The notes below the pieces were generated by a model. The model did no database searches and was not told the DNA's origin. It saw only the letters and a list, made by a program, of their open reading frames with translations. From positions 1-55,441 of the IMG/VR virus record IMGVR_UViG_3300032327_000488: DNA of 55,441 bases. The stretch is one strand, 5' to 3'. Positions 33,116 through 51,712 of the stretch are shown in pieces; position 1 is the stretch's first letter; every line of letters begins with the position of its first letter. The DNA comes from a virus (taxonomy: Duplodnaviria; Caudoviricetes). The position numbers and the translations under genes were made by a program.

Positions 33116-33178
33116 ACATACAGCCTAACGTCGAAACGACCCCAAACAAACTACCAGCTTAAGCAGCAAGCCTTGAAA

Positions 33179-34006
33179 CTAGTTATCGAAGTTTTGCTGG
33201 GCCTTGTAATTACCCTTACGGTTATTGCGCCTAATGCCATAAAGGTTGCCAGTAGCACTACCAGCAACGCTACCAGCAATAGCACCGCCAATAACGGCAG
33301 CAGGCTTACCGCGGCCAGCAACACGTCCCAAAGTAGAGCCAGCAATATTGCCGGCAAAACTGCCGCCAAGCGTAGGAATATAAACATTACCAAAAGCATC
33401 AAGCTTACGGCCCTTACGACCCGCAACAAGCGGATGAACACTAGGAAAAGCCAAGCCCGTCGCAATACGGCCAGCAGACGGCCTGCCACTAGACGGCCGA
33501 TCTTCCTTCTTCACCTGATAATCAGGATGCTTCACCGCACGCTTACGACCAACATAATCAGCGCGAGTCAACGCGGCATCAAAACCACCGTAAGCACCAG
33601 CCAAAGCACCAAGACCAGCACCCGCCAAAGCGCCACGAGGACCGCCAATGACAAGACCCGCAGCACTACCAAGACCAGCACCAGTACCCGCGCCAACAGC
33701 CGCGTACTTGCCAGCCTTCTCCCGGCGAGCCTGACGAATCTCACGAAGGAGAATCTTCCGATTGTTTTGAGCTCCCTCATGGCCATACATGTCACGGTTC
33801 CACACCACGTGCTTATAAGCGTCAGTCTCGCGAAGACGTTTCTTACTCTCGCTCTTCAAAACCTCATCCGCAAAAGCAGACAACTCACGCAACGACTTCT
33901 CAACACCATACGAAGACACGCGAGCCCCTTTACACGTCTTACATGTACATTCACAGCCCTTATCAGGCTTACCTGGCTTACACCCGCACCCACACGAAGC
34001 GCACAT
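33179..34006 (-). CDS. Metallothionein-like Cys-rich N-terminus plus two cationic glycine-zipper cassettes (putative head cargo)
   Basis: 8 Cys in the first 25 aa; VEK|S and VLK|S motifs; GAGTGAGLGSAAGLVIGG zipper. Confidence 0.7.
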   Translation of the reverse strand: MCASCGCGCKPGKPDKGCECTCKTCKGARVSSYGVEKSLRELSAFADEVLKSESKKRLRETDAYKHVVWNRDMYGHEGAQNNRKILLREIRQARREKAGKYAAVGAGTGAGLGSAAGLVIGGPRGALAGAGLGALAGAYGGFDAALTRADYVGRKRAVKHPDYQVKKEDRPSSGRPSAGRIATGLAFPSVHPLVAGRKGRKLDAFGNVYIPTLGGSFAGNIAGSTLGRVAGRGKPAAVIGGAIAGSVAGSATGNLYGIRRNNRKGNYKAQQNFDN

Positions 34007-34173
34007 CAGGCATCCACCAACTCAACGCGACGAGCTTTCACCCACGACTCCAAACGAAGCCACGAAGCAGCACCCGGAACAACATCACCAGGCTCAAACA
34101 CGCGACCATCAATCACAAGACGCCGTACCGCCCGATACACAGGTTCGCGCACCTTACGAGGACGCCCAGCCAT
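34006..34173 (-). CDS. Small hypothetical protein (55 aa, not in ORF track)
   Basis: MAGRPRKVREPVYRAVRRLVIDGRVFEPGDVVPGAASWLRLESWVKARRVELVDA; coupled at both ends (TAATG, TGATG). Confidence 0.7.
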   Translation of the reverse strand: MAGRPRKVREPVYRAVRRLVIDGRVFEPGDVVPGAASWLRLESWVKARRVELVDA

Positions 34174-34664
34174 TACGTAGTTGTCGCAGTCGTAGACGTC
34201 GTATCAAAGTTGCTAGACGTCACAGTAATCGTAAACGTACTAGCCGTAGCGTATGTACGAGTAGCAGTCCGACCACGCACCGAAGACGAAGACGAATCGC
34301 CCCAGTTGATAGAGAACGGTGCCTCACCACCAACAAGAGTGATCGTCACCTTCTTCGTGAGCGTCCCATCAACCACAGCAGACACAGTGAAGTCATTAGT
34401 CGTACCGCGAGCCAAAATCACGCGACTCTTAGCACCAATAAACACCGGCGTCGGGCGACGCTTACCCTTACGAACACCACCCGACGACGACGTGTTACGA
34501 CCAAAAACGTCAGGAGTCGCATACAACACATTCTTGCTAATCAGCGCATCCAACTTACGAAGCGCAGCAATATCAGCCGCCGAAATCGTCGCATCCTTAG
34601 CATATGACGTGCCACGGAGAACAATCGCCTTAGCGGCCTTAATAGTCGCAGGAATGGTATGCAC
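34173..34664 (-). CDS. Capsid-associated protein with a C-terminal PKD/Ig-like domain
   Basis: FSINWGDSS...TRTYATASTFTITVT PKD signature; directly after the major capsid gene. Confidence 0.7.
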   Translation of the reverse strand: MHTIPATIKAAKAIVLRGTSYAKDATISAADIAALRKLDALISKNVLYATPDVFGRNTSSSGGVRKGKRRPTPVFIGAKSRVILARGTTNDFTVSAVVDGTLTKKVTITLVGGEAPFSINWGDSSSSSVRGRTATRTYATASTFTITVTSSNFDTTSTTATTT

Positions 34665-34673
34665 AACTACCCC

Positions 34674-35891
34674 TTACGCAACAGCGCTGCTAAGGAAATA
34701 CCCCAAGTCCGGAGCAACAACCTTCATGTCATAAGTCATTTCAGCCTCAATACGGTCCGAAGCAATGTTCTCCATACGGAACCGCTTCACCTTGATGCCC
34801 TGACCGTTACCACCAAGATATCCGTTCCACGTAAACGTATAACCGGCAGAAGGAGTCATCAGCGACGGACCCGAAGGAGCATACGCAAACAGCACAGACT
34901 TCGAGTTCGAAATGAAATCGAAACCGACAGTACCAAACGTCAACGTACCCGAAGAAATCGCAGCCGAAGTGTTAGCCGACAGAGTAACCGAAGTACCCGA
35001 AACGGCAGCAACGGTAGTACCCGCGGCAACACCAGTACCCGAAACCGGAGTACCAACAATGATACGAGTATCAGCAGCACCAAGAGTCACCGCAGTAGAA
35101 CCCGAAGACGCCGAACCAACCGCAGTAAACACAGTGTTCACAGAAGCCTGAACACCAGCATCCGGGAACTGAGCAGGCGAACCGAAATCAGTAGCACCAG
35201 ACACACCCGCAGCAGTCGCATACGACGTGTACAGTTCATCCACATCAAACAGAGTCGCAATCAGATCCTCCGTAACAATACCCTTCTGGGTGTACTTGAT
35301 ACGGTCAATAATGTCCGGGTGCTGCTTCAAACCCTTCATAACATCCGCGCCAAGAACGCAAATGTTCGGCTTAAAACCAGTCAACTTACGAAACGCCACA
35401 ACAATGTCAGCAACATCGCTAATCGGATCCGAACCAGCGTCAGACCACTTCACAAAGTCAGTGGTACCAACCTTGTCAGTAGCCCAGACGCCAGTCTTGA
35501 AATAAGCAGCGTTCCAGTCAATATCACGCTGAAGCAGCAACTGGTTCGTAATGAACTCAGTAGCATCCCGATCAAGGTTGAAGTTCGAATCAGCGTTCGC
35601 GCGCAACTGGTCATCAATATCCTTGTGGATACCGTACACATGCGCGAAATACTGATCCGTGGTCAGGTTCCAACCAGAACCCGGAGTCTCAGTACCAGGA
35701 GCACGACGCTTAGCGTCAGTACGACGCCAATCCGCCTTGCTGTACTTCCAGTACAGATCAGACTGCTTAGAAACAGGGACCTTGGGGAAAACCTTATCCG
35801 CAAGGTAGGTCGATGCCGACTGAAGATACGCAATGCTGACGTTAGTTAACGGAGCATTGACGTGAAGGTCGGACTGAGCGGGACTGGGCAT
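34674..35891 (-). CDS. Major capsid protein (lambda gpE-like HK97 fold) with a ~70-aa beta-rich insertion
   Basis: LTNVSIAY...ADKVFPKVPV..QSD.Y; WSD.GSDPI.D; LKQHPDII; C-terminal VAPDLGYFL. Confidence 0.9.
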   Translation of the reverse strand: MPSPAQSDLHVNAPLTNVSIAYLQSASTYLADKVFPKVPVSKQSDLYWKYSKADWRRTDAKRRAPGTETPGSGWNLTTDQYFAHVYGIHKDIDDQLRANADSNFNLDRDATEFITNQLLLQRDIDWNAAYFKTGVWATDKVGTTDFVKWSDAGSDPISDVADIVVAFRKLTGFKPNICVLGADVMKGLKQHPDIIDRIKYTQKGIVTEDLIATLFDVDELYTSYATAAGVSGATDFGSPAQFPDAGVQASVNTVFTAVGSASSGSTAVTLGAADTRIIVGTPVSGTGVAAGTTVAAVSGTSVTLSANTSAAISSGTLTFGTVGFDFISNSKSVLFAYAPSGPSLMTPSAGYTFTWNGYLGGNGQGIKVKRFRMENIASDRIEAEMTYDMKVVAPDLGYFLSSAVA

Positions 35892-35920
35892 ATTAGGATC
35901 CTTCTCTTCTCAGCCCTAGG

Positions 35921-36337
35921 CTACTTCAACAGAACGCTGATCAGTTCGCCCGTAGTGGACGAAGACTGAAGCGCAATACCATAAACTTGCTCCGTACCAG
36001 ACTGTGCAATCGCGCGACCAACAGAATCACAGGTCACAGCAGCACCCGCGGTAATCGCCGTAGCGCCACCACCAGACTCAACATAAGAAATACCGCGAAT
36101 AGCGACAGACGCAGCACCACCAACTTGCTGCGGCTTATTCTGCAACACGCCAACAGAACGATCCGACGCCTTCGTAGTGCAAAGACCAACCGTGTACTTA
36201 CCAGTCACCTTCACAAAACGGTACATACGACCGTTGTTCGGCGAAGCCGCACCAGTCTGACCAGGAACACCAGTAAAAATACCGATGCTCGAGTCAGCCG
36301 CGAAACTCGCAGAATGAAAATTCTCGTCGAAAGCCAT
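35921..36337 (-). CDS. Capsid decoration/cement protein (DUF2190-like)
   Basis: YRFVKV...GVLQNKP...ITAGAAVTCDSVGRAI...GIAL...GELISVLL. Confidence 0.8.
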   Translation of the reverse strand: MAFDENFHSASFAADSSIGIFTGVPGQTGAASPNNGRMYRFVKVTGKYTVGLCTTKASDRSVGVLQNKPQQVGGAASVAIRGISYVESGGGATAITAGAAVTCDSVGRAIAQSGTEQVYGIALQSSSTTGELISVLLK

Positions 36338-36345
36338 CTCTTACG

Positions 36346-37347
36346 TCACCATCCGTTCTGTTCAGAAATGTACGCGTCATACGCGTCCGGGTTAGCAGCG
36401 AACATTGCAGTCGAAGCCTGCTCAAGCGAGAAATCCCCAGCAGACTTAGTGACCATCTCCGAAGCCAAACCATTCACGCGATCGTAAATGGAGTTCGAAG
36501 CACCACCAGCGAGGCCAACCTCGTCATAGATCGCGTCACCGGCAGCAGTCAGAACATGGTCAAGAATGTCCAACTCCTCATCAGTGAGGACCGAAGCAGC
36601 AGCCTTCAAAATCGGACCAAACACTCCAGGGTGAACCGGGAGGTTGTACTCAGCAGCCTTAGCAATAAACGCCTCAGTCACACGCTCATCCTGAAGCATC
36701 GCCAGTTCATCCTGCGCCGCCTGAGCCTGAGACTTAGCAATCTCAACCTCGTCCAACGCCTTAGCGATAATGAACTCACGGTCAGACTCAGAAACAGCCT
36801 TCGAAAGCTGCTCAAGCACCGAATCGCCCAAAGACTTGCCGACACCGTCACCGTCACGGTCACGCATCATGTACGCTCCTCCTCCACCAACACCAACACC
36901 AGCAGCGGTGCCAGCAGCAATCTTTTTACCATTCTTACGCGCACCAAAACCTACACGTTGCGCCATCGGGTTAAGCTTCGCAGCACCCTCAGCAGACGGT
37001 CCGCTAGTAATCTCGCCCTTCATGCCAGTCTTAAACTGGTTAGCGGCAGTACGCAAACCACTCATTGAAAGCGCCTTACCAATTTCGTCATCGTCGTCTT
37101 CGTCATCCGCAACGAAAACAAACTCATTACCAGCCTCATCGAAGACAGTGTCGCCATGTTCCAGATCATCCTCATCAACAGGAAGCCCAGTATCGGTGTA
37201 CAGATCTGTCACGCGACTCTCCTCAATCATGTCAGCGGCATTCGCAGCCTTAGAAAACGCAATCAAACCGTGCTGGTTAGCAGGACGGTCAACAGAAGAA
37301 ACCTCATCAAACTCGAGGTCAAACAGCTTGTTCACTTTCCTACCCAT
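36346..37347 (-). CDS. Scaffold protein carrying the N-terminal protease strand EVSSVDRPAN and an internal cationic cassette
   Basis: Acidic and helical; C-terminal NPDAYDAY capsid-binding-like helix; several xxK|A/S motifs; start placed at MGRKV. Confidence 0.75.
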   Translation of the reverse strand: MGRKVNKLFDLEFDEVSSVDRPANQHGLIAFSKAANAADMIEESRVTDLYTDTGLPVDEDDLEHGDTVFDEAGNEFVFVADDEDDDDEIGKALSMSGLRTAANQFKTGMKGEITSGPSAEGAAKLNPMAQRVGFGARKNGKKIAAGTAAGVGVGGGGAYMMRDRDGDGVGKSLGDSVLEQLSKAVSESDREFIIAKALDEVEIAKSQAQAAQDELAMLQDERVTEAFIAKAAEYNLPVHPGVFGPILKAAASVLTDEELDILDHVLTAAGDAIYDEVGLAGGASNSIYDRVNGLASEMVTKSAGDFSLEQASTAMFAANPDAYDAYISEQNGW

Positions 37348-37426
37348 AGAACTAATCATGGAGCACAACTCCCGCCTGCGCGATAGGGATACGCCATAAA
37401 TATTTTACAAACAACAAAAAAGTAGA

Positions 37427-38653
37427 TCAGTTCCACGGCTGATTACGACGAGAAACACCGCGACCATACACAGCAGCAGAACCAGCACCCAAACCACCAG
37501 CAAGACCAGCAGCAATCAAACCACGCTTTGAACCACGAACACCATAAAACTTACGGCCATCAACAACCTTATTAGCCGAAAGAAACTCCCCGCCGCGACC
37601 TGCAATAGAGCCAGCAGCAACAGAACCACCACCAAGAACACCAGCGTACATTCCCATGCGACGTTGACGGTCGCTTTCCGGATCAAAATGCCGAGCCTTA
37701 CCATACATAGCGTACGAAGGCTCTTGACTAGCAGGCTGCTTCTTACGGCCAGTAGCCATCAGCGCGCCAGCACCTGTAGCACCAGCACCCACACCAATCT
37801 TCGTTTTAAGACTAGCGTTACCAAACTTTTCCTTAGCCGCAGCACCAACGCGCTCACGGCCACTCATGCTAGCGAAACGCTCCGAACGAGCACGCTGCGC
37901 ATTAGCCAGCGCCCTATCCTTCGCCGCACGCTCCATTGACCCAACATTAGTACCACCAGCGCGAGCCGATTGTGACGCTTGGACAGCAGCGCGACGCTCA
38001 CCAATCGTTTGACCAGTAGGAGTCTTACGAGCCGAAACCAAAGCGTCACGACGAGCCTGCTTCGCCTCAGCCACAGCGGGACCCCGCTGCGCCCGCTCAA
38101 AACGGCGAGCCAAACGCGCATCAACAAGTTTCCCCTGCGAACGCGCAGACCCAGCAACAGCATTCGCTGACGGCCCAGTAACAGCACCCATATGAGAAAT
38201 AGTGCGAGCAAACTTAATCTGAGAAAGCGGATTAGCTTTTCTTACCTCAACAATACGACGACCAGACCCATTACGAGGATCAACACCCAAATAAGACATA
38301 CCCTTAACCACCTTAGATTCGCTAGCCTGCCGAGCCTGACGATGTAACGCACGAGCCGACAAAGCATCACTAGCCAACTCAGCGGTATGCAAAACACCCC
38401 AACCACCAAGCGACGCCAAAGCCGCCCTCTTCGGATCCTTAAAAGCACGACCAATGCCGGGAACTTTCCGCAAACGCCCAACAACCTTACCCGCGGAAGG
38501 AACATCAGACGCAGGAGTCTTCACCGCACGCTTAATTTCCTTACCCGTCAAATACGCGGCATGCAAACCACCAGCAGTCGCCACACCGTTCAACACTTGG
38601 CCGGTGCGAGCCTCCTTCAAAGAAGGAGTGCCAGAAGAAACACCGCCGCTCAT
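37427..38653 (-). CDS. Cationic multi-cassette glycine-zipper protein (putative head cargo polyprotein)
   Basis: Arg/Ala/Gly-rich; several GxxxG hydrophobic helices; VVK|G, VRK|A and YGK|A separators. Confidence 0.7.
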   Translation of the reverse strand: MSGGVSSGTPSLKEARTGQVLNGVATAGGLHAAYLTGKEIKRAVKTPASDVPSAGKVVGRLRKVPGIGRAFKDPKRAALASLGGWGVLHTAELASDALSARALHRQARQASESKVVKGMSYLGVDPRNGSGRRIVEVRKANPLSQIKFARTISHMGAVTGPSANAVAGSARSQGKLVDARLARRFERAQRGPAVAEAKQARRDALVSARKTPTGQTIGERRAAVQASQSARAGGTNVGSMERAAKDRALANAQRARSERFASMSGRERVGAAAKEKFGNASLKTKIGVGAGATGAGALMATGRKKQPASQEPSYAMYGKARHFDPESDRQRRMGMYAGVLGGGSVAAGSIAGRGGEFLSANKVVDGRKFYGVRGSKRGLIAAGLAGGLGAGSAAVYGRGVSRRNQPWN

Positions 38654-38913
38654 CCCAACATCTCCAACGGCGAATACGCCAAACCACGAGCACCAACAAA
38701 AGCGTAAGCATTCCGAGACCCCTGGCGACGCTCAGCCCGCGAAAGCTTACGACCCATCAACGCAGCACCGTTATCAAGCATGATCCGGCTAGACGCAAAC
38801 ATCGCCAACGGCGAAACAGGATCCGAAGACACACGACTCGACGGAATACCAATCGACGGCATAATCAAATCATCCGGCATACGCCCATAAGAACGAGGCT
38901 CAAACAAAGCCAT
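38650..38913 (-). CDS. Hypothetical protein
   Basis: 87 aa; coupled to both neighbours (TAATG, ATGA). Confidence 0.6.
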   Translation of the reverse strand: MALFEPRSYGRMPDDLIMPSIGIPSSRVSSDPVSPLAMFASSRIMLDNGAALMGRKLSRAERRQGSRNAYAFVGARGLAYSPLEMLG

Positions 38914-39644
38914 TAGATTTCAGCCTCAACACGCTTACCGCGACCATGAACACTAAACCCAGTCTTACGACCAGCCTTAATATCAGCCCACGTATCCCCC
39001 TCCTCATACTGGTAACCAACCCACCAGCCACGAGGAGTATCCGCAGGCAACCCCATCTTCTCAATCTTCTCATCAGTCACAACAAAAGACTCAATCATCT
39101 CGCCAGCCTTCACAGCATTACCAAACTCATCACGCTTATGCTGCGTACCACCAACACGAGACTTTTGAACATACGTATACGCCGCACGCTCCAACTCGTC
39201 CGGAGTAATCCAATCACCCTGCAAATCAACCACAGGCTGACCATCAACCTCCACAACAGAAGCCCACCCAAAAGCCTGACGCTTATCCGAATCAAGCTTA
39301 GAAAACTCGCCACTCCACACCACGTCATACGACTTCACAACAGTCCCCGAAGACACAGGAGACGCAGGCTTCTTCGCCATCGGCGCTGGCTGAGGCGCAG
39401 TCTTCACCGCGGCAGGCTTCGGCATCGGCGGCTTCGGAACCAAAACACCACGCGAAGGCTTACTCACACCAGTCGGCACAGAAACATCAGACGGAGCAGG
39501 ACTCATCTTCGACACAGCATCCCGGTCATACAAATAAGACCACACGTCAGCACTATCCACCGTCGGACCAAACAACGTGTCACACAGTGCAACAAAATTA
39601 GGATCCACCTCGTAAAGAGACTTCACCACACGACGCGAATCCAT
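38913..39644 (-). CDS. Prohead maturation protease (XkdF-like, S78 clan)
   Basis: K.D..KR.AFGWASV...VDLQGD.I...ELERAAY.Y...QH...ESFV...GWWVG...W..IK.G..TGFSVHG; GGAGG RBS before ATG 39644. Confidence 0.88.
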   Translation of the reverse strand: MDSRRVVKSLYEVDPNFVALCDTLFGPTVDSADVWSYLYDRDAVSKMSPAPSDVSVPTGVSKPSRGVLVPKPPMPKPAAVKTAPQPAPMAKKPASPVSSGTVVKSYDVVWSGEFSKLDSDKRQAFGWASVVEVDGQPVVDLQGDWITPDELERAAYTYVQKSRVGGTQHKRDEFGNAVKAGEMIESFVVTDEKIEKMGLPADTPRGWWVGYQYEEGDTWADIKAGRKTGFSVHGRGKRVEAEI

Positions 39645-39707
39645 ACAAACCTCCACCTAGGGCTAGTCTTATCATCCCGCACAAAAGTAACAGACGCCAC
39701 CAAGGAA

Positions 39708-42074
39708 TCAGTATTCCCCGGGCAGACTTACCGTCACCAAACGGATAGGAACGTTACCAATATCCCCCAACTCACGCCGCGACATAGTAAACGCCTCCGC
39801 CAATGACTCCTTCGCAAATGGACTTTCGTGAATTGCTATACGAACGTCCTTGTTAGTCCGAAACGCCTTCAACGCGGCGTCAGAACCGGTAACAAAAACC
39901 GGGGGATCTCCGGGGTCGTAAGCAACCCGTACGGCTACAACTTTCCCGTCCACAGAATCAACACGTACACCGCTGCTCAAAGCAGTGTACGGAGATTCCA
40001 TGCGTTCGCGGGCGTAATGATCCTCTTGAATTTCTACAGCACGATCCTGCACTTGTGCAAGGCTTCCGGAATCTGCCGAAACACGCTGTTCAAACAAAAC
40101 CTCGCCTTCTGATCCATTACCGACGCTAATGTAGTTGTGCATTAGATTAGAAAAACGCGTCAACGGGCTGTCCTCAAAAACATACCCAGGATCTTTCATG
40201 CGAGCAGTGAACGTAGCCCCAAGAACCCTATCTAGGTCGTTTACAGCAAGGCTGGTACGTGAATCTTCACCCGCAAGCATGTCCATGAAATGGGCAGACG
40301 ACATCTGGTAACCCTTAGCTTTGCCATAATCAAGCCTCTCAAAAACTTGCGTAGACGGTTGAGGCGTTGCGGCAGTCTTTCGACGCGCAGGACGTTTCGG
40401 TGTGCCCGCAGACGCCACAGCAGGTTTAATTACAGTCTCAACAGGAATAGCATGCTCGCGAACAGCATGTTCCCTAACCGCATGCTCCCTAACGGCATGT
40501 TCGCGAACAGCATGCCGAGGCTGAAAAGCCTCCCGGCTTTTAGCAGGTAACAGCGCAGACAAATCAGTCAACGTAGGAGAAACCTTTTTCTCCTGCCGAG
40601 CGACAGGCCGATTAGCTCGCTCCAAACGAGCGAGACGCTCTAACCGCGGATCCACGTCAGCAAACTTCCCATCCGCGTCCCGCTCAACATTGACCATCCG
40701 CAACTTGCCATCCACACGCCACTGCTCGCGCGACTTACCAAGCTCCTCACCGTCGTACGTAAAACGCCACTGCTGAGGAACCAAAGCATAGTGTCCAACA
40801 GGAGTATCTCTGCCAGAAAACATCACAGGATCCGGATTGCTGTCCTGAAAAGAAAAACGCGCCTGATTCGGAACAGAGAAACCTTCACCATCAGTGCCGC
40901 CATCATAAATCGGCACAGCGCCCGAAATGATCAACATTCCCATAGGCTCACCGCTTTCCATCATCAAGTTAGACCACGCACCCGAGTCGCTCTCAACAAT
41001 CCTACGATCAGAAAAATACAACTCGGTGGCTAACTGATTCTCAATAAGCAAACGCTTCACGTCACCAGCAGTAAAACCATCCTTCTCAAACTGCTGCAAC
41101 AGTCGAATAGGGACATAAGCGATGTGATCCTTCACGTCATGCGCGACATGAAAAGGCTGCTCAACAATCTTCGCTTTAAGCTCCCTCTGCGTAACAGCCC
41201 TAGGAAGCTTACTTAAAGATGGAGTTTTCCTAGCCTTCGGCTCTTTCGGTTTAGCAACATCAGGCTTAGCGTGCTCACGAACAGCATGCTCTCGCTTAGC
41301 ATGTTCCCTTGTTGCGTGTTCGCGAACAGCGTTCGGTCGCTGTTCAGCCTTTAGATCAAACAAAGACATCAAATCAGACAGCGCAGGTTTCTTATCCTCA
41401 CGCTTCATAGGAACGGCATTAGAACGCTGCAACCGCTCTAAACGAGCAAGCCGTTCAACATCCTCAGCAGAACGACCAGGCTTCACCGCAAACTTACCTT
41501 CAGGATCCCTCCGATGATCTTCCTCACGGAAACGAACAGCCTTCGACACTTCCGCGCTCGACTCTCGAGCACCCACATATGAAGCAAAATCCATCAAAGA
41601 ACGATCAGCCGCATCAACACGCACCACAGGAGACACCACAGGAGCCTTCACAGCATTCACATACGAACCAACACGCTTCGCAGGAACGCCCACCACATCA
41701 GCAGCACGCTCCACCGCAAAAGGCATCGGAACACCCGCAGAAGACCACACAGTCAACACATGAGAAACACCCTCAACAGCATCCTGATGAATCTGCGACG
41801 CCAACAACCGACCATACTCGCTCGAAGCATCACCCATCACCGGCTCAACAGCCGCAGACAACGCCTTCGCAACGGGAGAAAAATCGGCGCTATTCAACGC
41901 GTCAACGACATCAGCCGCATCAACCAGCGAACGACCCGTCAAACCACCCAACGCCGACTTCGCAAGCGCGTGATACCCCAACACAGCCGAACCCACACCC
42001 TGCACCACGTCACGGCCATCAATACCAGCCAGAACAACGCGAGCCGCGCCCTCATCATCCCACCAGCGGTCCAT
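39708..42074 (-). CDS. Large head-associated protein with an internally duplicated module and REHA repeats
   Basis: Two copies of K|..RD..GKF..ERLARLER...L.DL..L...(REHA[VKT])n. Confidence 0.75.
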   Translation of the reverse strand: MDRWWDDEGAARVVLAGIDGRDVVQGVGSAVLGYHALAKSALGGLTGRSLVDAADVVDALNSADFSPVAKALSAAVEPVMGDASSEYGRLLASQIHQDAVEGVSHVLTVWSSAGVPMPFAVERAADVVGVPAKRVGSYVNAVKAPVVSPVVRVDAADRSLMDFASYVGARESSAEVSKAVRFREEDHRRDPEGKFAVKPGRSAEDVERLARLERLQRSNAVPMKREDKKPALSDLMSLFDLKAEQRPNAVREHATREHAKREHAVREHAKPDVAKPKEPKARKTPSLSKLPRAVTQRELKAKIVEQPFHVAHDVKDHIAYVPIRLLQQFEKDGFTAGDVKRLLIENQLATELYFSDRRIVESDSGAWSNLMMESGEPMGMLIISGAVPIYDGGTDGEGFSVPNQARFSFQDSNPDPVMFSGRDTPVGHYALVPQQWRFTYDGEELGKSREQWRVDGKLRMVNVERDADGKFADVDPRLERLARLERANRPVARQEKKVSPTLTDLSALLPAKSREAFQPRHAVREHAVREHAVREHAVREHAIPVETVIKPAVASAGTPKRPARRKTAATPQPSTQVFERLDYGKAKGYQMSSAHFMDMLAGEDSRTSLAVNDLDRVLGATFTARMKDPGYVFEDSPLTRFSNLMHNYISVGNGSEGEVLFEQRVSADSGSLAQVQDRAVEIQEDHYARERMESPYTALSSGVRVDSVDGKVVAVRVAYDPGDPPVFVTGSDAALKAFRTNKDVRIAIHESPFAKESLAEAFTMSRRELGDIGNVPIRLVTVSLPGEY
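40450..40515 (-). repeat. Pentapeptide (REHAV)n coding repeat; second array at about 41269-41330
   Basis: RHAVREHAVREHAVREHAVREHAI and NAVREHATREHAKREHAVREHAK. Confidence 0.85.
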
Positions 42075-42097
42075 CAACAACCCTCACATAGACAAAA

Positions 42098-46000: not shown

Positions 46001-46269
46001 TCAATACCAGCCAAATAACGAGCAGTCGTCAACAAGTCATCATCTGGATACGTACCATCAGCCACCCGCGAAACGTACAGACGGCCAAGCGCAGCCTTCG
46101 CAACACTCGTACGCTCCTGCGCCTCATCCGCAGCGTAAGCCTGCAACATGGCATCATTCGCCTCAAGCAGATCCATCACATAATTCGACACAGCCTCATC
46201 CACAAGAACAGCCGCGCCCTCAGGATCAGCAGCAAAAGCCGCATCAATCACGCTCACCAAATCAGTCAC
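42958..46269 (-). CDS. Large head-associated polyvalent protein with a degenerate JAB/MPN-like domain
   Basis: 1103 aa; ISK|A then VERDPATGRF tag; GVLIDADGKVVSQSVG...QYVRTRVAGGLTGEDI..ARMATVVSSSGVFSL. Confidence 0.75.
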   Translation of the reverse strand: MTDLVSVIDAAFAADPEGAAVLVDEAVSNYVMDLLEANDAMLQAYAADEAQERTSVAKAALGRLYVSRVADGTYPDDDLLTTARYLAGIEEFISKARFGEMWNMNGKKKQVFVERDPATGRFGRVVDTQRKTSALGAGAGLSPAIVATGNIADGKYSDGVKDSPEEKRKLDEHQSQYEQASGHAKELYRQFGGDSKGIMVEMEVLRDGQKMQPSLSFPLSAARNGLPNDVAMTLNPLSDQIISLEVAVSPDASSAAQKRVARFNTFGYVGGDAATTALDSGSFKQTFGRRGVDESGSAVLFDRMRGASNILAATGNAKAAGFAGLVGTLGPEAEEVLGPYVRQSAYRYRGTEKTPDASLRQEFASQDMKSVRAIADGNVAGSAFDDEQGLRGRGIVTGAYLARRRDASGDQLALQVQSDVAAAHLARTLPTDSFTARLSEASGHVLPSQGVLIDADGKVVSQSVGYADDHYLPFNLKNMAALRGGQYVRTRVAGGLTGEDIYASVSSGARMATVVSSSGVFSLEFDPNFRGARGNSDKARQIYGRYLKILDAVNNSGMYLKDVSPQVYDDADRTARLLTSNLPASADTNDERTKIRNRILDEKRDEQRSGINPEEVQAEAEAAARKEPGFARLSGQEQARRVADVYDEIKFERQNESVQDLALNAAGYEVALKTLQQQFPYFIRNVSYEPLATGRTGREGSGFLTSRGADDRVGAVLQSSSRRDRGYTPAGQLRPSVGYKKPAASGATSSSSGGVSSSSTPKSSEEPKSPDAPSAPSAQRSAPLLDRLKLYDAPAKTAVNQAYTALNSTVSSVNTVQPAHDSWRDAVDSGDSNAMAAFLLKDPRELRSLIESDPVALRVASDSKAMTSAFRYLFGPSVKDDVIAHDSSMSEAFGGAKSSSDAGKYVVSLVDDLVSASNLINPFSGVGDDPFYMGAKPQLTSNLVGITNRAQLNAFEAGPGRAIALLPVPSDTESLFTALKGLPDAWEKARSEVVSNPASLLPKMAQMSGIPPEGLQLLTGKNNPGPSDFEPSAVAAQALLFQQARALKRVREVIDVMDPAGGGSPKVQPLAKGLSSRRVRVLPRDHPRSVDVMLRKAVGLPLV
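43049..43078 (-). other. Putative -1 frameshift signal C CCA AAA plus a 7-bp hairpin
   Basis: In-frame heptamer at 43072-43078; stem AGCCCCT/AGGGGCT (43049-43067) begins 4 nt downstream. Confidence 0.7.
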
Positions 46270-48977
46270 GACACACCCTCCATCGCACTAGCGTACCGCT
46301 TATAACGCGCACTAGTCGTATCCACAGGCGACAAACCACGCCCCGGACCATACAACCCAGCACGCGCACGATCAGAAGCCTTCGCCTCAATACGAGACAA
46401 ACTCCTACTACGACGACGCGCAATCTTCGCAGACTTCGCAGACGTATACCCAGACGCCAACATAGCAGCACTAGTCACCGCAACAGCAGGACGATTCACA
46501 GGACGACGCCGCGCATCATGAGCCAACATCCACCCAGACAAACCAGTCAACCCAGCGTTACCAACAGCATTAGCCCGATTCTCGTTACGCTCAAACCTCA
46601 AATGACGGTAACCCGCCTCAGACTCAGGCGAAACACGACGAAAATCAATCGCTTTCGCCAAATCATCCCACTTATTGTCCTTCACCCGCTGCTTAAACCA
46701 ATCAGGCATAGGAACACGAGGACCCTCACTGGCAGGCGCAACAGCGCCTGGACGATTCTGACCCGGAACAAACGTCAAATGCTTCTGATGAACAGCCGTC
46801 TGCCGACCATCCAGCAACACGTTGAAATAGTCCTTATCATGCCGATTCAGAACCTTAATCATCTTCCCCGTAGGGCCATACTTCGCAAGGAAAGGCAAAC
46901 CCTTCACCACCTCACCCTGAACCATCTTTCTCACAAACACACCACCGCTCCCGCGAGGATGCTCACGCTCCTCCCACTTATTTGCCCCATACACAGGAGC
47001 ACCAGCAAGAGTCGAATAACCCACAGCACGACGAGTCTTACCCAAGAAAGGACGACCACCCGGCAACATGCCATACCAGTCAATAGGCTGACCGTTCTCC
47101 TTACCAGCAAGAAAACTTTGAGCCTCAGGCGACAACTTAGAACGCGCACGTTCCGGCGTCGTCATACCAAGACGAGCACCCCGAATATGGCTACGAACAG
47201 CACGCACATCTTTAGGACTCAAACCAGAAAGCTCAGGAGTAATAGTGCGCGCCGCATACCCGCCATAAGCATACCCAGGCACATACTTAATGCCCTTCTG
47301 CCTCCACGCCGTATAACCCTGACGGCCACCATCCATAGCGCTCTTATCTTCCGTATACCCAGCAGAACGCCACAACATCCCAGGAGACTTTGAATCCCCC
47401 AAATTACCGCGGATCTCCCGAACAAGACCAGAAGCAATTCCATTACCTTGAGCCCACGGCTCAAGTTTCATGTTATTAACCTTCACGTGCCCCGTCGGCA
47501 AAACCATCGCCTCAACAAAACCAGCCCTACGATGCCGACCAGTCTCCGGATGCGGATACGTAATATCAGCCTGAAAAGTACGCGCACCAAGAGGCGAAAC
47601 AGACCGCCCCTTCTCATTAGTCAACCACGACTTGTTTTTGATGCGCGCGCCTGACTGCAAAAAATCAGACGGAATAATCTCGTCAAGGATCCCTGAAGCA
47701 CGCCTATCAAAACGGGCTTCCACTTTACGGCCGAGCGCAGTCATAGGAGCCGTGCGGCTCACAGGCCCAGCAATCTGCTGATACGTGCGATTAAACCGCC
47801 CCAACGCAGCAACAGACGCCTTCTCAACTTTCATACCCCCGGCAACCATGTTGTCGTAAGCATTCGGATACGGGCGACCAGCAGCACGAGCACGCGCCTT
47901 AGCACGCGCCAACTCCTTTGGAGAAAGAGCCTTCTCCACTGAACGCGCTATATCGCGTTTCCTAGCTCGACTCATGATGTCGTCTCGACGTATTTCTTTC
48001 GGCAAAGGAGCCCGAAGCAACTTAGGCGCAGCAGCGTCTATACCCTTCGGATACAGACGGCTCGGGCCTCCCATAGACTCACCTGCTTGAGGCGTCAAAA
48101 AAGAAACAACACGATGTTTCTTTTTTTCTTTAAAGCCGCTGCGATGAGCATATCCGCTAGCCTGCTCACGGCTGGCAGACGTATAAGCCCCTGGGCCGCC
48201 AAGTCCATCCGTCGAAGGCCGAATAAACCCCTCACGCTTAATGCTTCTAGCGTTCGCCAATGTAGTGCCATGAAAACGACGAACCGCCACCATTTTCGAC
48301 ACAGGATCACGCCGACGCTCCAAACGCTGCTGAGCCGCATAATTAAACGAACCAGCAGAACCCACACCAATGGCACCAACACCAAGAGTATTAGACGCAG
48401 ACGTCGCAGCAGCCTCACGCGAAGCAACCTGAGCAAGACGCGCCGACCGCACACCCCGCGAAGCCAACGCCTTAGCGCCCTGCGGAGTACGCAACCCCAG
48501 CGCAGTCAAACCCATCGTCCCCGAAACAAGAGACAACGAACGACCAGCAGACCTATGCCGATCCAACTTACGCGCCTCAGACTCAGACAAAGCCTTCGCA
48601 ACACGATCCTGATACGTCGCATAATGCACCGCAGGCTTCACCACATCACGGCCCAACTGCACACGATCCACACTCTTACGGTCGCGCAACGCCTGATACC
48701 CGCCAACAACCAAAGGCACACTCGACAACTGCATACCACGCTGCACCAACCGGCCACCCGCGTCAGGAATATGCGAACCCGAAGACAAACCCCCAGGACG
48801 CTTACGCGCAGACCGATAAGCAGCAACCGCCACATTCGCAGTCCCACGACGAGCAAGACGCAAATCCAAACCATGACCAACAAGCTTCGCACCAGCAAGC
48901 AACCCCGCACCCGCAGCAATACGCTCCGCCGCAACACGAGGATTAGGCTTGCCCTCCGGCTGACTGGTTTCCGCCAT
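46266..48977 (-). CDS. Modular head-cargo polyprotein (Gly-zipper, ART-like, GNAT-like and SH3-like cassettes)
   Basis: GGAGG RBS; FHGTT...GPGAYTS...ASGYA; LEPWAQGNGIASGLV; EHPRGSGGVF; VxK separators; occupies the post-portal (MuF) position. Confidence 0.75.
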   Translation of the reverse strand: MAETSQPEGKPNPRVAAERIAAGAGLLAGAKLVGHGLDLRLARRGTANVAVAAYRSARKRPGGLSSGSHIPDAGGRLVQRGMQLSSVPLVVGGYQALRDRKSVDRVQLGRDVVKPAVHYATYQDRVAKALSESEARKLDRHRSAGRSLSLVSGTMGLTALGLRTPQGAKALASRGVRSARLAQVASREAAATSASNTLGVGAIGVGSAGSFNYAAQQRLERRRDPVSKMVAVRRFHGTTLANARSIKREGFIRPSTDGLGGPGAYTSASREQASGYAHRSGFKEKKKHRVVSFLTPQAGESMGGPSRLYPKGIDAAAPKLLRAPLPKEIRRDDIMSRARKRDIARSVEKALSPKELARAKARARAAGRPYPNAYDNMVAGGMKVEKASVAALGRFNRTYQQIAGPVSRTAPMTALGRKVEARFDRRASGILDEIIPSDFLQSGARIKNKSWLTNEKGRSVSPLGARTFQADITYPHPETGRHRRAGFVEAMVLPTGHVKVNNMKLEPWAQGNGIASGLVREIRGNLGDSKSPGMLWRSAGYTEDKSAMDGGRQGYTAWRQKGIKYVPGYAYGGYAARTITPELSGLSPKDVRAVRSHIRGARLGMTTPERARSKLSPEAQSFLAGKENGQPIDWYGMLPGGRPFLGKTRRAVGYSTLAGAPVYGANKWEEREHPRGSGGVFVRKMVQGEVVKGLPFLAKYGPTGKMIKVLNRHDKDYFNVLLDGRQTAVHQKHLTFVPGQNRPGAVAPASEGPRVPMPDWFKQRVKDNKWDDLAKAIDFRRVSPESEAGYRHLRFERNENRANAVGNAGLTGLSGWMLAHDARRRPVNRPAVAVTSAAMLASGYTSAKSAKIARRRSRSLSRIEAKASDRARAGLYGPGRGLSPVDTTSARYKRYASAMEGVS

Positions 48978-50445
48978 CACTACCTCCCGGTGTCATCCCC
49001 TGCTGAGCAGCCACATACTCCGCATTAGCCTGAGCAAAACGAGTCGCCTCACTACGCATCTGCAACAACCGACGCTGCTCAACCTGGTCATCATCCAACT
49101 CAGGCAAACGCGCAGCCGAACGAAGAAAGTTCTCCAAATTCCCATCCGGAAACCAAGAAACACCCATCGAAGCCATCGAAGACATAAACGACGACAACAC
49201 CGTAATATCCGGCGCATCAACATCCGTCGGCACAATCTTCGGCAACTCCGCAGGCTTCCACCCATTCACCAAAAACAATTTCGGAATCGCATGCCGGTTA
49301 ATCGTGTCCGCAATCGACTGCGTAATCGAATTCAACGACGTACGAAAAATACCCGTCTTATCCGTATGCAACGAATACGACCCACCACCCTGATGACCAA
49401 CCATAATGAAATCAGCCAACACACTCATCAAAATGCGTTCCTCATACCGGCGAATAATCACATCCGTATTGAACGCTCGAGCGCCACCACCACCCAGCAA
49501 CTCAAACGAATACAACGGCTGCTTCGTGTCCTGATCATACGCGGCAGGAAAAACCATACCCTCCTGATCATTACGACGAACCGACTTCACCAGCTTACGA
49601 AACGCATCAACACTCTTCGCCTGATCACTACCCGGCTTCGCCCGCAACATCTCCGCAGGCACCTTCACCATAGGCAAACCAGCAAGATCACGCTCAACAC
49701 CAATAGACTCAAACTCTTCCATCCGCTTCTTAAAAAACCACGGACGGTAAGCACCACGAAGCATCGAAACACCCTCAGGGCTGTTCTTATGATGCCGATA
49801 CCGGAACAACAAACTGCGCTCCATCGGAACCACAACAGTCCGATAATTCGGCGGCGCAATCTGCGTCATACCAATCGCATCACCCGAATCATCAAACACC
49901 CAACGCAGCAACGTATCCTGCGAACGAATCGGCATCTTACGCCAACCCACACGACCATCAGACTGACTCGAACGACGCTTAGGATCCTTCTCCCACGGCC
50001 CCTGACGACGCTTATACACAACCTCATGCCACGACCAGCCATACACCAACATAGAAAGAACTTCAGAAATGAAGTCATCCCATGTATGAGACATATCCTC
50101 CATGCACGTCTCAACAAACTTAGCCGCCTCAGCGTCCTCCTTTGACTTACCCGCAGGCTCCACATGCCAATCTACGTTACGAAGCAGCCGGTCAATCGAA
50201 AACAACAACGCCGCCACAATCGGGTCGTTCAGCGACATTTCCTTAAAAACCTCAACGCCCTTACGGCCCTTAACCTGAGGAAGGAACTCCTCATCAAGAT
50301 ACCCAGACGCACGCCGCAAACCAGACGAACCCAACTCCAAAAACGGAGAAGCCGACTCGCCAGCTTTCAACTCTTCAGAGTCGTTAATTACCGAAGAAAG
50401 ATTAACCGAACCCTCTCTCGGACGAAGAACAGAGTCATCACTCAT
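48943..50445 (-). CDS. Portal protein (DUF935/Mu gp29-like)
   Basis: ELGSSGL...EEFLP...NDPIV; YGWS.HEVVY; PEG.SMLR.AYRPW; GVERDLAGLP; GSYSL; INRHAIPKL. Confidence 0.9.
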   Translation of the reverse strand: MSDDSVLRPREGSVNLSSVINDSEELKAGESASPFLELGSSGLRRASGYLDEEFLPQVKGRKGVEVFKEMSLNDPIVAALLFSIDRLLRNVDWHVEPAGKSKEDAEAAKFVETCMEDMSHTWDDFISEVLSMLVYGWSWHEVVYKRRQGPWEKDPKRRSSQSDGRVGWRKMPIRSQDTLLRWVFDDSGDAIGMTQIAPPNYRTVVVPMERSLLFRYRHHKNSPEGVSMLRGAYRPWFFKKRMEEFESIGVERDLAGLPMVKVPAEMLRAKPGSDQAKSVDAFRKLVKSVRRNDQEGMVFPAAYDQDTKQPLYSFELLGGGGARAFNTDVIIRRYEERILMSVLADFIMVGHQGGGSYSLHTDKTGIFRTSLNSITQSIADTINRHAIPKLFLVNGWKPAELPKIVPTDVDAPDITVLSSFMSSMASMGVSWFPDGNLENFLRSAARLPELDDDQVEQRRLLQMRSEATRFAQANAEYVAAQQGMTPGGSDGGNQSAGGQA

Positions 50446-51665
50446 CAACGCTCCCCAGAGCCCTTGACGTACCATGAATCAATCTGATCACGGCTCATAT
50501 TACCGGCAGGCAAACCCGCCCGATAAGCAGCCGCCTTCGCCTTACCATGATCAATCGCCGCACGGCGACCAACCACAGCCTGAGAAGCATACCGCGGCTG
50601 GGCAGGCTTAGACCCATAACTACGCGAACGCTCCACGCCCACCATGCCGCCCACCATGCCAGCAAAACCAACACCAGCAGCAACACGACCGCCCCGAGCA
50701 ACACGACCAAACGTACGCGTCACCTTAGGAGCAGTAGCAGTAAACCCACGCCACTTACCCGCAGCCTCAGACGCCTTCTGACGCGCGTGCTTAGCAGCAA
50801 ACTCCTGCTGATTCTTCAACTCACCAAGATCAACCATCTGCTTTGCACGCGTAGCCTGCACCCGCTTTGCCTCAGCGACATCAGCAGGATTCGAACGATC
50901 CATCACGCGAGTAGCCTTCTCGTCATCAAACAAAGGCACCTTACGGCGATCCTTACCCCGCCCGTCCAACCAACCATTCAACGTATTCCACTGACGAGTT
51001 GAACCCGCAAGTTGACTATCAGCAGCCTGAGCGGCAGTACGCATACCAAACGCACGATTCTTAGCCGAACGGAAATCATCACGCAACGCGGAACGCGCAC
51101 GATCATCAGCCGCTTGAGCGCCAGCAACACGACGCTGCCCATACACAGACGCGCCAACACCAGCCAACCCCACACCAGCGCCCACACCAGCGCCAGCCAT
51201 GTAACGACGTTGATCAGACTTCACAACTCTCATAGTACGCAAAGCTCCTCGCGTAGCAGCCTGCGGCCAGTTAAACCGCGTCGGAGTCGGACCAAACTTC
51301 TTCGGGACAAACTTAGGCTGAGTCTCAAGCGTCTCAGACTCACCCAAACGCCTCAAATGCTCACGCGCAAGATCACCCTCAGGACCGCCACGAGCCACAT
51401 GCTCACGCAAACCATGAACCCGAGACGAAGCCGTAGGCTTCCACTCCCGATTGTCCTTCGTGTGCCGTTCAAACCGGATCCGCTCATTCAACTTCGCCCG
51501 ATGATAGCGATTCGTCCGATTCATATAGACAAGCTCATTTGCGGCAAAACCCGCAATACCCACCTGAGCAGCGCGATGAATACGATCAGCCCGGTCATCA
51601 TCGCTTTTCGACTTCTGCTCATTCCGCCCAACAACACCAACAGCACCAAATCGTTGTTGAGTCAT
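50445..51665 (-). CDS. Cationic glycine-zipper protein upstream of the portal (putative head cargo)
   Basis: Arg-rich; MAGAGVGAGVGLAGVGA and VAAGVGFAGMVGGMVG helices; stop overlaps the portal start. Confidence 0.65.
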   Translation of the reverse strand: MTQQRFGAVGVVGRNEQKSKSDDDRADRIHRAAQVGIAGFAANELVYMNRTNRYHRAKLNERIRFERHTKDNREWKPTASSRVHGLREHVARGGPEGDLAREHLRRLGESETLETQPKFVPKKFGPTPTRFNWPQAATRGALRTMRVVKSDQRRYMAGAGVGAGVGLAGVGASVYGQRRVAGAQAADDRARSALRDDFRSAKNRAFGMRTAAQAADSQLAGSTRQWNTLNGWLDGRGKDRRKVPLFDDEKATRVMDRSNPADVAEAKRVQATRAKQMVDLGELKNQQEFAAKHARQKASEAAGKWRGFTATAPKVTRTFGRVARGGRVAAGVGFAGMVGGMVGVERSRSYGSKPAQPRYASQAVVGRRAAIDHGKAKAAAYRAGLPAGNMSRDQIDSWYVKGSGER

Positions 51666-51712
51666 ACGCTTAATAATGCCAACACAACAAACACTAAACA
51701 AGCCGTTAGAGG

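Follow-up and report, generated by a model that had tools for sequence, protein, structure and literature searches.

Conserved Gly/Ala-rich segments in basic head-module proteins of an uncultured siphovirus, candidate protease-trimmed internal head proteins

The window analysed here is the whole 55,441-base sequence of IMG/VR virus record IMGVR_UViG_3300032327_000488 (estimated completeness 74%), which belongs to an uncultured long-tailed siphovirus. Its head genes code for four strongly basic proteins–the products of open reading frames (ORFs) of 275, 408 and 904 amino acids (aa), and of an ORF that precedes the portal gene (the pre-portal ORF)–and for a scaffold-like protein of 340 aa, and all five contain stretches rich in glycine and alanine (Gly/Ala segments; coordinates are given in Table 1). 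We found that these segments are a real, selected feature of the head-module proteins, because they exceed what is seen in shuffled sequences and recur at the same gene positions in related phages. The segments belong to at least four conserved modules; the "family" of glycine-zipper peptides put forward in the original prediction, which was made from the sequence of the window, holds as a design, common descent not being demonstrable. The explanation we favour, to which we give slightly less than an even chance, is that the basic proteins are internal proteins of the siphovirus head, trimmed by the head protease, which would bind DNA and leave the capsid with it, their Gly/Ala hairpins being latent membrane or packing elements.

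All seven segments that had been singled out lie in the translations of minus-strand ORFs where the original prediction placed them. To be counted as strict, a segment had to be free of charged residues over 13 or more positions in a row, contain 30% Gly or more and match the pattern small-xxx-small-xxx-small no fewer than twice. We compared each protein with 2000 shuffles that preserve its composition. By this definition there are eight strict segments, spread over four of the five ORFs. The 408-aa ORF has three (shuffle mean 0.07) and the pre-portal ORF two (shuffle mean 0.0085), numbers that were equalled in none of the 2000 shuffles of either protein; the 275-aa ORF has two (shuffle mean 0.05, equalled by a fraction of 0.0005 of the shuffles) and the scaffold one (shuffle mean 0.01, equalled by 0.01 of the shuffles). 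There is no strict segment in the 904-aa ORF (shuffle mean 0.04), whose quoted segment satisfies a looser rule only. Elsewhere in the window, among a greedy set of 47 ORFs, strict segments occur in just one more, which codes for a 1079-aa tail protein. At the DNA level the segments are only 62–81% identical to each other over 23–37 nucleotides of Gly/Ala codons, so they are not recent copies, and their likeness is one of composition and codons. The description of the proteins as rich in Arg and Lys fits four of the five, which have net charges of +26 (275-aa), +46 (408-aa), +85 (904-aa) and +40 (pre-portal) and basic flanks of the kind described, but not the scaffold, which is acidic overall (net −33) and basic only in its central 80 residues (net +7).

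We looked for the same pattern in 148 related loci from IMG/VR, 80 of them identified through the portal protein and 68 through the capsid protein. Among the 1694 ORFs of at least 80 aa counted in these loci, strict segments are present in 108 of the 373 that are basic (net charge of +0.06 per residue or more) and in 42 of the 1321 others (odds ratio 12.4), and 75 of the 148 loci have at least one basic ORF that bears a segment. The design recurs at the same head-gene positions in related uncultured phages and fades with distance. Where portal identity is 65% or more, a basic ORF is present upstream in 10 of 14 loci and downstream in 13 of 13, and one with a segment in 7 of 14 and 6 of 13, respectively; where it is below 50%, basic ORFs are seen upstream in 4 of 11 loci and downstream in 1 of 7, and none of them has a segment (0/11 and 0/7). 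Similarly, around capsid genes with at least 65% identity (4 kilobases upstream and 3 kilobases downstream), 24 of 25 upstream and 27 of 31 downstream regions contain a basic ORF, with a segment in 18 of 25 and 15 of 31; below 50% capsid identity the basic ORFs with segments fall to 1/5 and 1/6. In the cultured phages Laroye, Ottawa and ValentiniPuff, none of 22 head-region proteins has a strict segment and none is basic, the highest net charge being +1.

Rather than one homologous family, the segments are parts of several modules. An alignment of the C-terminal module of the 408-aa protein from 14 phages (A1), compared as a profile with the pre-portal, 275-aa and scaffold proteins in hhalign, gave probabilities of 0.66%, 0.40% and 0.33%, respectively, and the proteins were aligned across the Gly/Ala runs only. 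With probabilities below 1% and DNA repeats lacking, we rejected common homology of all the segments. The 408-aa ORF matched five other proteins in an index of 5.8 billion proteins, and these reveal its modular build. In A1, the invariant residues sit in the charged flanks–Arg-x-Phe-Asp-Pro-Glu-Ala-Asp-Arg-Gln-Arg-Arg ahead of the first helix, and Tyr-Lys-Arg-Gly...Arg-Asn-Gln-Pro-Trp at the extreme end–while both Gly/Ala stretches vary freely. A profile search with the C-terminal module among 1.84 billion cluster representatives produced 146 hits with E ≤ 0.001, of which 116 have E ≤ 1e-10. The proteins are 78–792 aa long, and the module ends at most 3 residues from the C-terminus in all of them but P0132, P0136 and P0146. 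All 144 representatives examined are basic (median net charge +0.105 per residue) and 117 of them contain a strict segment; among the 134 representatives longer than 150 aa, 64 have an extra segment upstream of the module. A Pfam scan of 74 of the 146 representatives (those of at least 330 aa) left 73 without any family at E ≤ 1e-4, the other having a sub-threshold match to Gly-zipper_YMGG. One subgroup has N-termini with Arg-Arg, a Gly/Ala stretch and Ala-x-Ala; we dropped a reading of these as Tat signals, as the residues after Arg-Arg do not fit the Tat consensus and the window protein has no Arg-Arg pair.

The N-terminal and C-terminal modules of the 275-aa protein are present in 17 related loci. 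Its C-terminal module (residues 162–274) is found in L115, L118, L120, L135 and L136 and partially (residues 145–250) in L116, where the module of this family forms a tandem repeat. The Cys-rich N-terminal domain has the pattern C-x2-C-x-C-x-C...C-x-C-x-C-x2-C, which is kept in all 12 members that have the domain; Pfam has no family that matches it, and it may serve in targeting or as a knob that binds metal. The central part of this protein, at residues 98–141, comes close to the Pfam family Gly-zipper_YMGG (PF13441; E = 1.8e-6, 28.0 bits versus a cut-off of 28.9), and lower scores were obtained for Rick_17kDa_Anti (PF05433; 16.2 bits versus 24.2), Gly-zipper_Omp (PF13488; 14.1 bits versus 25) and the glycine-zipper region of YiaD (NCBIfam NF053611; 22.8 bits versus 175). 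None of the other four ORFs hit a glycine-zipper family model. A 335-aa plus-strand frame at 33173–34180, antisense to the 275-aa gene, has 2% Gly and a net charge of +51, and it displaced that gene in the longest-ORF call; it is most likely spurious, because the minus-strand frame has homologues in the 17 loci.

For the 904-aa protein, homologues exist in 13 of the 80 portal-anchored loci, and the conserved N-module ends at a conserved joint beyond which the relatives diverge. The protein has no Pfam or NCBIfam match, and a PDB sequence search gave nothing at E = 1 or better. We rejected an identification as an ADP-ribosyltransferase: a PARP-like stretch has E = 0.13 and 12.2 bits against a cut-off of 26.7, and it is common to two relatives only. 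The pre-portal protein, whose true start is likely the ATG at 51665, has homologues in L003 and L005, and the N-terminal motif of its family (Arg-Phe/Tyr-Gly...Val-Gly-Arg/Lys) has 14 matches in 8 loci as well as two in the window ORF.

Fusions to the head protease are the strongest indirect argument that the free-standing basic proteins are head-internal. N-terminal extensions of at least 150 residues are present in 18 of 38 distinct protease homologues; 17 of these 18 extensions are basic, and three have strict segments. The N-module of the 408-aa protein is itself fused to the N-terminal side of the protease in P0003 (464 aa, in which the module is followed by PF14550), L135 and L136, and the same arrangement is seen in L142. 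Because the protease acts inside the procapsid, the fusions place basic modules there.

We identified the motif hydrophobic-x-Lys-Ala/Ser as a candidate cutting site of this protease, the cut falling after Lys. In the scaffold of the window, position −2 is taken by Val, Ile, Leu, Phe or Met in all nine Lys-Ala/Ser dipeptides (0.9 expected, and none of 500 shuffles equals this), and in 43 distinct scaffold homologues the −2 residue is hydrophobic in 307 of 343 such dipeptides. The 811 Lys residues of 48 scaffold homologues have Ile, Val, Leu or Phe at −2 in 519 cases and Ala or Ser at +1 in 391, and the forward motif occurs 343 times compared to 127 for the reversed motif. The ratio of observed to expected motifs is 9.65 in scaffolds and 3.17 in proteases, and is lower in the 790-aa family (2.12), tape measure (2.00), 1103-aa family (1.70), terminase (1.28), capsid (0.90) and portal (0.77) proteins. 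In 27 of 38 protease homologues the motif lies 18–30 residues before a conserved Phe-Gly-Trp-Ala-Ser, whatever is upstream of it (background 0.186 per such interval); the protease of the window has a candidate self-cut site, Val-Val-Lys then Ser at residue 108, just before the catalytic domain.

The motif is also found at module boundaries. In the 408-aa family it comes immediately behind the N-module, where 23 of 29 aligned rows have the Lys, and it terminates the conserved N-module of the 904-aa family, which has one more copy inside. In all 12 members of the 275-aa family that have the Cys-rich domain, a V-x-K-(S/G/A/N) joint comes right behind it; in the pre-portal ORF the motif occurs at residue 149, just before the first Gly/Ala segment; and in the window scaffold two motifs bracket residues 99–178, the piece that holds the Gly/Ala segment. 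The claim that the segments are released by processing is thus plausible, given the saturation of the scaffold with the motif and its place ahead of the protease domain and at module boundaries, but the products would not be short: pieces between candidate sites are mostly 80–250 residues long, so the term "peptides" does not describe them. A limited literature search found no publications on the specificity of XkdF-type proteases. Among cultured phages, the protein at the scaffold position has 8 copies of the motif in Laroye (gene 24, L084 10525–11367), 9 in Ottawa (gene 98, L002 16799–17578) and 12 in ValentiniPuff (gene 54, L001 16589–17608), compared to 1 in the capsid proteins of these phages.

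Under the explanation we favour, the pre-portal 406-aa, post-portal 904-aa, post-protease 408-aa and post-capsid 275-aa proteins, as well as the central part of the scaffold, would be built into the procapsid together with scaffold and protease. The protease would trim this cargo at exposed joints of the hydrophobic-x-Lys-Ala/Ser type, and the resulting basic modules, of about 80–250 residues, would be held on the packaged DNA by their charge and exit with it via the tail. Each module would be built around one or two Gly/Ala-rich helices, often as a hairpin, too weakly hydrophobic for ordinary membrane anchors; such helices could suit tight helix–helix packing in the capsid and, after ejection, late insertion into the cytoplasmic membrane of the host. 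We infer packaging, cleavage, DNA binding, ejection and membrane activity alike from the sequences. By analogy with other delivered proteins, a membrane role of the hairpins after ejection would be reasonable. A stronger form of the idea, an "ejectosome" stored in the capsid and peculiar to a clade of long-tailed actinobacterial phages, in which the head protease would cut modular polyproteins at the candidate sites into cationic hairpin modules that neutralise DNA in the head and, after expulsion via the tail, insert themselves into the cytoplasmic membrane of the host to open or line a route for DNA, seems to us unlikely.

AlphaFold2 (AF2) models the C-terminal module as a helix (8–37), a small beta hairpin and a second helix (59–86), with a loop of about 20 residues between the two helices; the mean predicted local distance difference test score (pLDDT) is 64.4 and the predicted template modelling score (pTM) 0.40. 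In the model of the full-length 408-aa protein, the stretches that correspond to the N- and C-modules are helical (block pLDDT about 70–79; 73–79 for the Gly/Ala helices of the C-module), and residues 113–174 and 279–313 are almost wholly below 50, so that the joints at 117 and 139 fall in a low-confidence region. A predicted complex of four copies of the C-terminal hairpin scored 0.03 against a mark of 0.42, which is evidence neither for nor against self-association. A Foldseek comparison of the hairpin model to the PDB gave no matches at E ≤ 0.001, the best being generic helical hairpins (E = 2.4), and the ESM Atlas returned nothing usable for the 408-aa ORF (best feature score 0.83, structural template modelling score ≤ 0.27). 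Spacings between Gly residues in 222 distinct segments are enriched at 4 (414 versus 339.5, z = 5.3), 7 and 8, as a zipper predicts.

Hydrophobicity was summed crudely over 19 residues on the scale of Hessa et al. 2005, without correction for position or length. On this scale a holin-like ORF adjoining the endolysin gene scores −4.3 kcal/mol. The best 19-residue windows over the segments score +4.1 to +5.3 kcal/mol, so that by this crude sum the segments do not look like classical transmembrane helices. Low hydrophobicity and basic flanks on both sides argue against ordinary co-translational membrane proteins, and are compatible with late insertion as oligomers.

A number of observations weigh against our explanation. 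The argument for packaging draws on gene position and the fusions. The reversed motif is also common in scaffolds, and the periodicity of amphipathic helices may supply part of the cleavage-site signal. Enrichment of the motif in the basic proteins is weak (1.56-fold, 340 versus 218), and the 408-aa, 275-aa and pre-portal ORFs of the window are not enriched when taken singly (1, 2 and 1 motifs versus 1.3, 0.8 and 0.9 expected). The motif lies within 20 residues upstream of a segment in 18.4% of cases versus 10.7%, and within 8 residues it is rarer than at random, so we rejected the idea that cut sites immediately adjoin the Gly/Ala segments. The hydrophobicity sums are themselves unfavourable to a membrane role, and beta-rich tail and capsid proteins of the window have similar ones; net positive charge on both flanks, seen in 135 of 226 segments, misfits ordinary membrane topology; and Gly–Gly spacing is also enriched at 5 (z = 6.4), which leaves no clean zipper register. 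The AF2 models are of modest confidence, both that of the C-terminal module and that of the full-length 408-aa protein, the latter from a 29-row alignment (pLDDT 61.3, pTM 0.27). In long-tailed phages, the tape measure protein normally serves membrane passage, and a membrane role of head cargo is not required. Among 50,697 cultured-phage records, DNA and protein searches with the whole region and with the 1103-, 408-, 275- and 904-aa ORFs found no match; only the capsid and portal proteins find relatives there. The related loci are kin, some of them near-duplicates, so that our counts describe a clade and not independent events, and their ORFs come from a mechanical call (the longest frames on the plus strand, chosen greedily without overlap), with some starts wrong.

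The main rival is that the proteins are head-internal but their Gly/Ala helices act inside the capsid only, as packing hairpins that dock the cargo to the scaffold, the portal or the capsid wall. This would account for the segment in the scaffold, a protein that is normally never at a membrane and yet has a segment of the same type (in the window, and as a strict segment in 10 of 23 scaffold homologues from close relatives). It would also suit the hairpin of the 408-aa protein, which is nearly always at the extreme C-terminus and has an invariant tail; docking elements of scaffolds and proteases, such as those of P22 and HK97, are usually C-terminal. The low hydrophobicity of the segments, and the placement of the invariant residues in the charged flanks and not in the helices, point the same way. 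However, the scaffold has a C-terminal tail of its own, helix-turn-helix-like and conserved in all 53 homologue rows among the matches listed, which is also present in distant relatives that have no basic proteins, and a second docking system is not obviously needed; moreover, freely varying helix sequences would be unusual for a specific docking surface. We consider a purely intracapsid role rather doubtful. Another possibility is that the segments are a by-product of disordered, basic, low-complexity sequence rich in Gly and Ala that serves as a DNA counter-ion or spacer, the zipper being functionless. The proteins do lack known domains (73 of the 74 scanned C-terminal module representatives have no Pfam family), residues 286–302 of the 408-aa protein are modelled as disordered, and the Gly spacing is not that of a clean zipper. 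Nevertheless, the segments far exceed composition-preserving shuffles and occupy conserved places within conserved modules, helices are modelled in the best-conserved module, and Tyr is biased to the segment end (within the last five residues of 71 of 226 segments, compared to the first five of 35), which makes this account improbable.

Two further alternatives place the proteins outside the virion or give the segments a toxic role. The proteins could be made late and act at the membrane of the infected cell–to exclude superinfection, time lysis or assist assembly at the membrane, for example–since YMGG/2TM glycine-zipper hairpins are bacterial membrane elements (bioRxiv 10.64898/2025.12.22.696046; SlyB in PMC12955049), and the central hairpin of the 275-aa protein falls just short of the Pfam cut-off. 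We think this highly improbable, because the genes have those for terminase, portal, protease, scaffold and capsid as neighbours, fusions join basic modules to the head protease, strongly basic loops flank the segments on either side, and co-translational insertion looks unfavourable at +4 to +5 kcal/mol, compared to −4.3 for the holin-like protein; no signal peptide or lipobox was seen when the translations were read by eye. The least likely reading, which we regard as extremely improbable, takes up the "bacteriocin-like" wording of the original prediction and has the head proteins release antimicrobial peptides. Cationic flanks next to Gly-rich hydrophobic stretches do resemble some class II bacteriocins in composition, and there is a weak alignment to MccV (E = 0.96), but its 10.5 bits are far below the cut-off of 27, and no class II family is among the matches listed up to E = 5. 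The segments are embedded in proteins of 275–904 aa whose genes stand in the midst of head genes, neither a small precursor nor a leader, immunity gene or exporter is found nearby, and the predicted pieces have at least 80 residues.

Several known systems resemble parts of what we propose for these basic proteins. The glycine zipper 2TM/YMGG proteins (SlyB, YfgH) are similar to residues 101–142 of the 275-aa protein in having two Gly/Ala helices joined by a tight turn; the window protein differs in scoring below the curated cut-offs, in lacking a lipoprotein signal, in being encoded within a phage head module and in its indicated actinobacterial host, and the modules of the other proteins do not match the models at all. 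In phage T4, the core proteins IPI–III and Alt are loaded in the prohead, trimmed by gp21 and injected (PMC9958956). Like these, the proteins of the window are encoded by head genes and look non-essential, and we propose for them assembly with the core, trimming, retention on DNA, injection and fragmentation of the scaffold. We found no sequence similarity, however, and the virus of the window is a siphovirus whose head protease is an XkdF-type serine enzyme; the T4 internal proteins are also not known to have Gly/Ala helix modules, of which the proposed cargo here is built. The T4 cut site follows Glu, unlike the hydrophobic-x-Lys-Ala/Ser candidate.

The ejection proteins of podoviruses (T7 gp14, gp15 and gp16, and their P22 counterparts) have been described for short-tailed phages, mostly of Gram-negative hosts; gp14 and gp16 of T7 are soluble in the capsid, have predicted membrane helices and refold into the envelope after ejection (PMC8954989). 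The segments studied here are strongly cationic and far less hydrophobic than those helices, an actinobacterium is the probable host, and no protein of the window hit a podovirus ejection family in Pfam, PHROG or NCBIfam. Glycine-zipper effectors offer a functional analogy, as delivered cargo that reaches the membrane from outside: among those covered by PMC12955049 (Tde1, Tse4, TelE, LXG-T2 and CdzC/D), the zippers of the first four are needed for membrane permeabilisation or translocation. Those proteins act as toxins; the ones here would instead aid the phage's own entry. The injected phage proteins of polyvalent and MuF-fused type described by Iyer et al. 2017 (PMC5512222) share with the 904-aa protein a large size, a position next to the portal gene, and a conserved N-terminal part followed by a variable remainder, and the weak PARP-like stretch of the 904-aa protein recalls their ADP-ribosyltransferase cargo. 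The words "glycine" and "transmembrane" are absent from the main text of that article; its supplementary alignments may hold related modules. Neither a MuF domain nor a significant enzyme domain was found in the basic proteins of the window by Pfam, NCBIfam and PDB sequence searches. A search for literature that joins "glycine zipper" with phage virions or capsids, judged by titles and the starts of abstracts, found nothing on head proteins.

Internal head cargo as a kind is already known, from T4 and podoviruses, and the cationic Gly/Ala-hairpin form would appear to be new. If our explanation is true, internal cargo and ejection proteins are not confined to T4-like and short-tailed phages, and a cationic Gly/Ala-hairpin cargo also exists in siphoviruses of Gram-positive hosts, which bears on how such phages pass DNA across the membrane and on what else they inject. 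The candidate motif gives a testable cutting rule for the XkdF-type head proteases, which are widespread and poorly characterised, a rule open to checking in cultured phages of Arthrobacter and Microbacterium, whose scaffold-position proteins hold 8–12 copies of the motif. The analysis also defines several unannotated protein modules, one of which has 146 cluster representatives, that viral metagenomes currently list as "hypothetical".

The phage probably infects an actinobacterium, and so a Gram-positive host. This assignment is made because the window has a gene for a WhiB-family regulator (10907–11251, minus strand; E = 8.3e-11, exceeding the Pfam cut-off), and WhiB proteins are, to our knowledge, confined to Actinobacteria and their phages. 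Such a host is in keeping with the closest cultured relatives in capsid and portal sequence, which are phages of Arthrobacter, Microbacterium and others (about 43–45% identity), and with the presence of endolysin and holin genes with no spanin-like genes seen in the window. The WhiB gene adjoins a RusA-like ORF (identified by eye only) and is downstream of the endolysin gene (11722–12540; Peptidase_M15_4 and PG_binding_1) and the holin-like ORF (12543–12899), whose product has three hydrophobic stretches. When 185,579 species genomes were scanned for the C-terminal module, there were 159 pattern hits, none confirmed, and no prophage copies, so the scan allows no host assignment.

Almost every gene of the window is on the minus strand (Table 1). 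In order of transcription, the gene for the terminase large subunit is followed by those for an exonuclease, the pre-portal protein, the portal, the 904-aa protein, a 1103-aa protein, an AAA+ ATPase, a 790-aa protein, the XkdF-type head protease, an 87-aa protein, the 408-aa protein, the scaffold-like protein, a decoration protein, the major capsid protein, a 163-aa protein and the 275-aa protein, and then by connector, tail tube, tape measure and tail genes.

Table 1. Coordinates of the head-module genes and of the parts of their products discussed in the text, in order of transcription (window positions).
Feature	Position	Strand	Remarks
Terminase large subunit	53624–55180	−	First in transcription order
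Pre-portal basic protein	50445–51665	−	406 aa from the ATG at 51665; net charge of +40 refers to the 418-aa frame 50445–51701
Gly/Ala segments of pre-portal protein	51138–51203 and 50634–50684	−	
Portal protein	48943–50475	−	Portal_Mu, E = 3.8e-33
904-aa basic protein	46266–48980	−	Directly after the portal gene
N-module of 904-aa protein	48288–48980	−	Residues 1–231; four weakly hydrophobic Gly-rich stretches (alignment of 10 sequences)
Quoted segment of 904-aa protein	48345–48389	−	Inside the conserved N-module
Head maturation protease, XkdF type	38913–39656	−	PF14550, E = 3.9e-18
408-aa basic protein	37427–38653	−	N-module, Arg-rich helical middle, C-terminal hairpin module
N-module of 408-aa protein	38318–38620	−	Two weakly hydrophobic helices; AF2 helices 12–45 and 74–112
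Third Gly/Ala segment of 408-aa protein	37748–37798	−	Residues 286–302; predicted disordered, block-mean pLDDT about 31–35
C-terminal hairpin module of 408-aa protein	37430–37702	−	Gly/Ala helices 37598–37657 and 37463–37522; tail Asn-Gln-Pro-Trp
Scaffold-like acidic protein, 340 aa	36346–37368	−	Upstream of decoration and major capsid genes
Central scaffold piece	36835–37074	−	80 residues (99–178), bracketed by two candidate cut sites
Gly/Ala segment in central scaffold piece	36865–36921	−	
Major capsid protein	34674–35891	−	phrog_1005, E = 1.3e-84; Phage_cap_E
275-aa basic protein	33179–34006	−	Cys-rich N-domain, candidate joints, basic region with three Gly/Ala segments
Cys-rich N-terminal domain of 275-aa protein	33896–34006	−	8 Cys among the first 25 residues; ends Val-Glu-Lys, then Ser
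Two Gly/Ala helices of 275-aa protein	33581–33706	−	Residues 101–122 and 125–142; turn Gly-Gly-Pro-Arg-Gly
Third Gly/Ala segment of 275-aa protein	33248–33301	−	Residues 236–253, within the conserved C-terminal module

The AAA+ ATPase gene (42098–42922, minus strand; AAA with E = 4.2e-17, and AAA_lid_6) lies within the head module, with the 1103-aa and 790-aa ORFs on either side, an unusual site for such an enzyme; its position is kept in relatives (13 portal-anchored and 6 capsid-anchored loci), and it might unfold or load cargo. The neighbouring 790-aa protein (39708–42080, minus strand) has an internal duplication, with repeats at 40439–40531 and 41258–41350. Each copy contains an Arg-Leu-Ala-Arg-Leu-Glu-Arg stretch and an Arg-Asp-x-x-Gly-Lys-Phe motif, followed by a run of Arg-Glu-His-Ala-Val/Lys pentapeptides. 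Asp-Pro...Gly-x-Phe motifs similar to the one in these repeats are also found in the 1103- and 904-aa ORFs, and they may resemble a His-Pro-Arg...Gly-x-Phe motif of injected phage and plasmid proteins.

Near the other end of the window, a 310-aa protein (2716–3648, minus strand) with no Pfam match is made up almost entirely of about 20 tandem copies of a unit of about 13 residues that ends in Thr/Ser-Arg-Val-Ala-Ser-Trp-Asn. The major capsid protein is 405 aa long, compared to about 326 aa in relatives, and has an insertion at residues ~262–321 that resembles a C-terminal extension of the tail tube protein (30317–31360, minus strand; residues ~236–297). The BLASTP match between capsid residues 123–321 and tail tube residues 93–297, a wider alignment that contains the insertion, has an E-value of 7e-7, and a domain of about 60 residues rich in Ser, Thr, Gly and Ala appears to be displayed on both the head and the tail.

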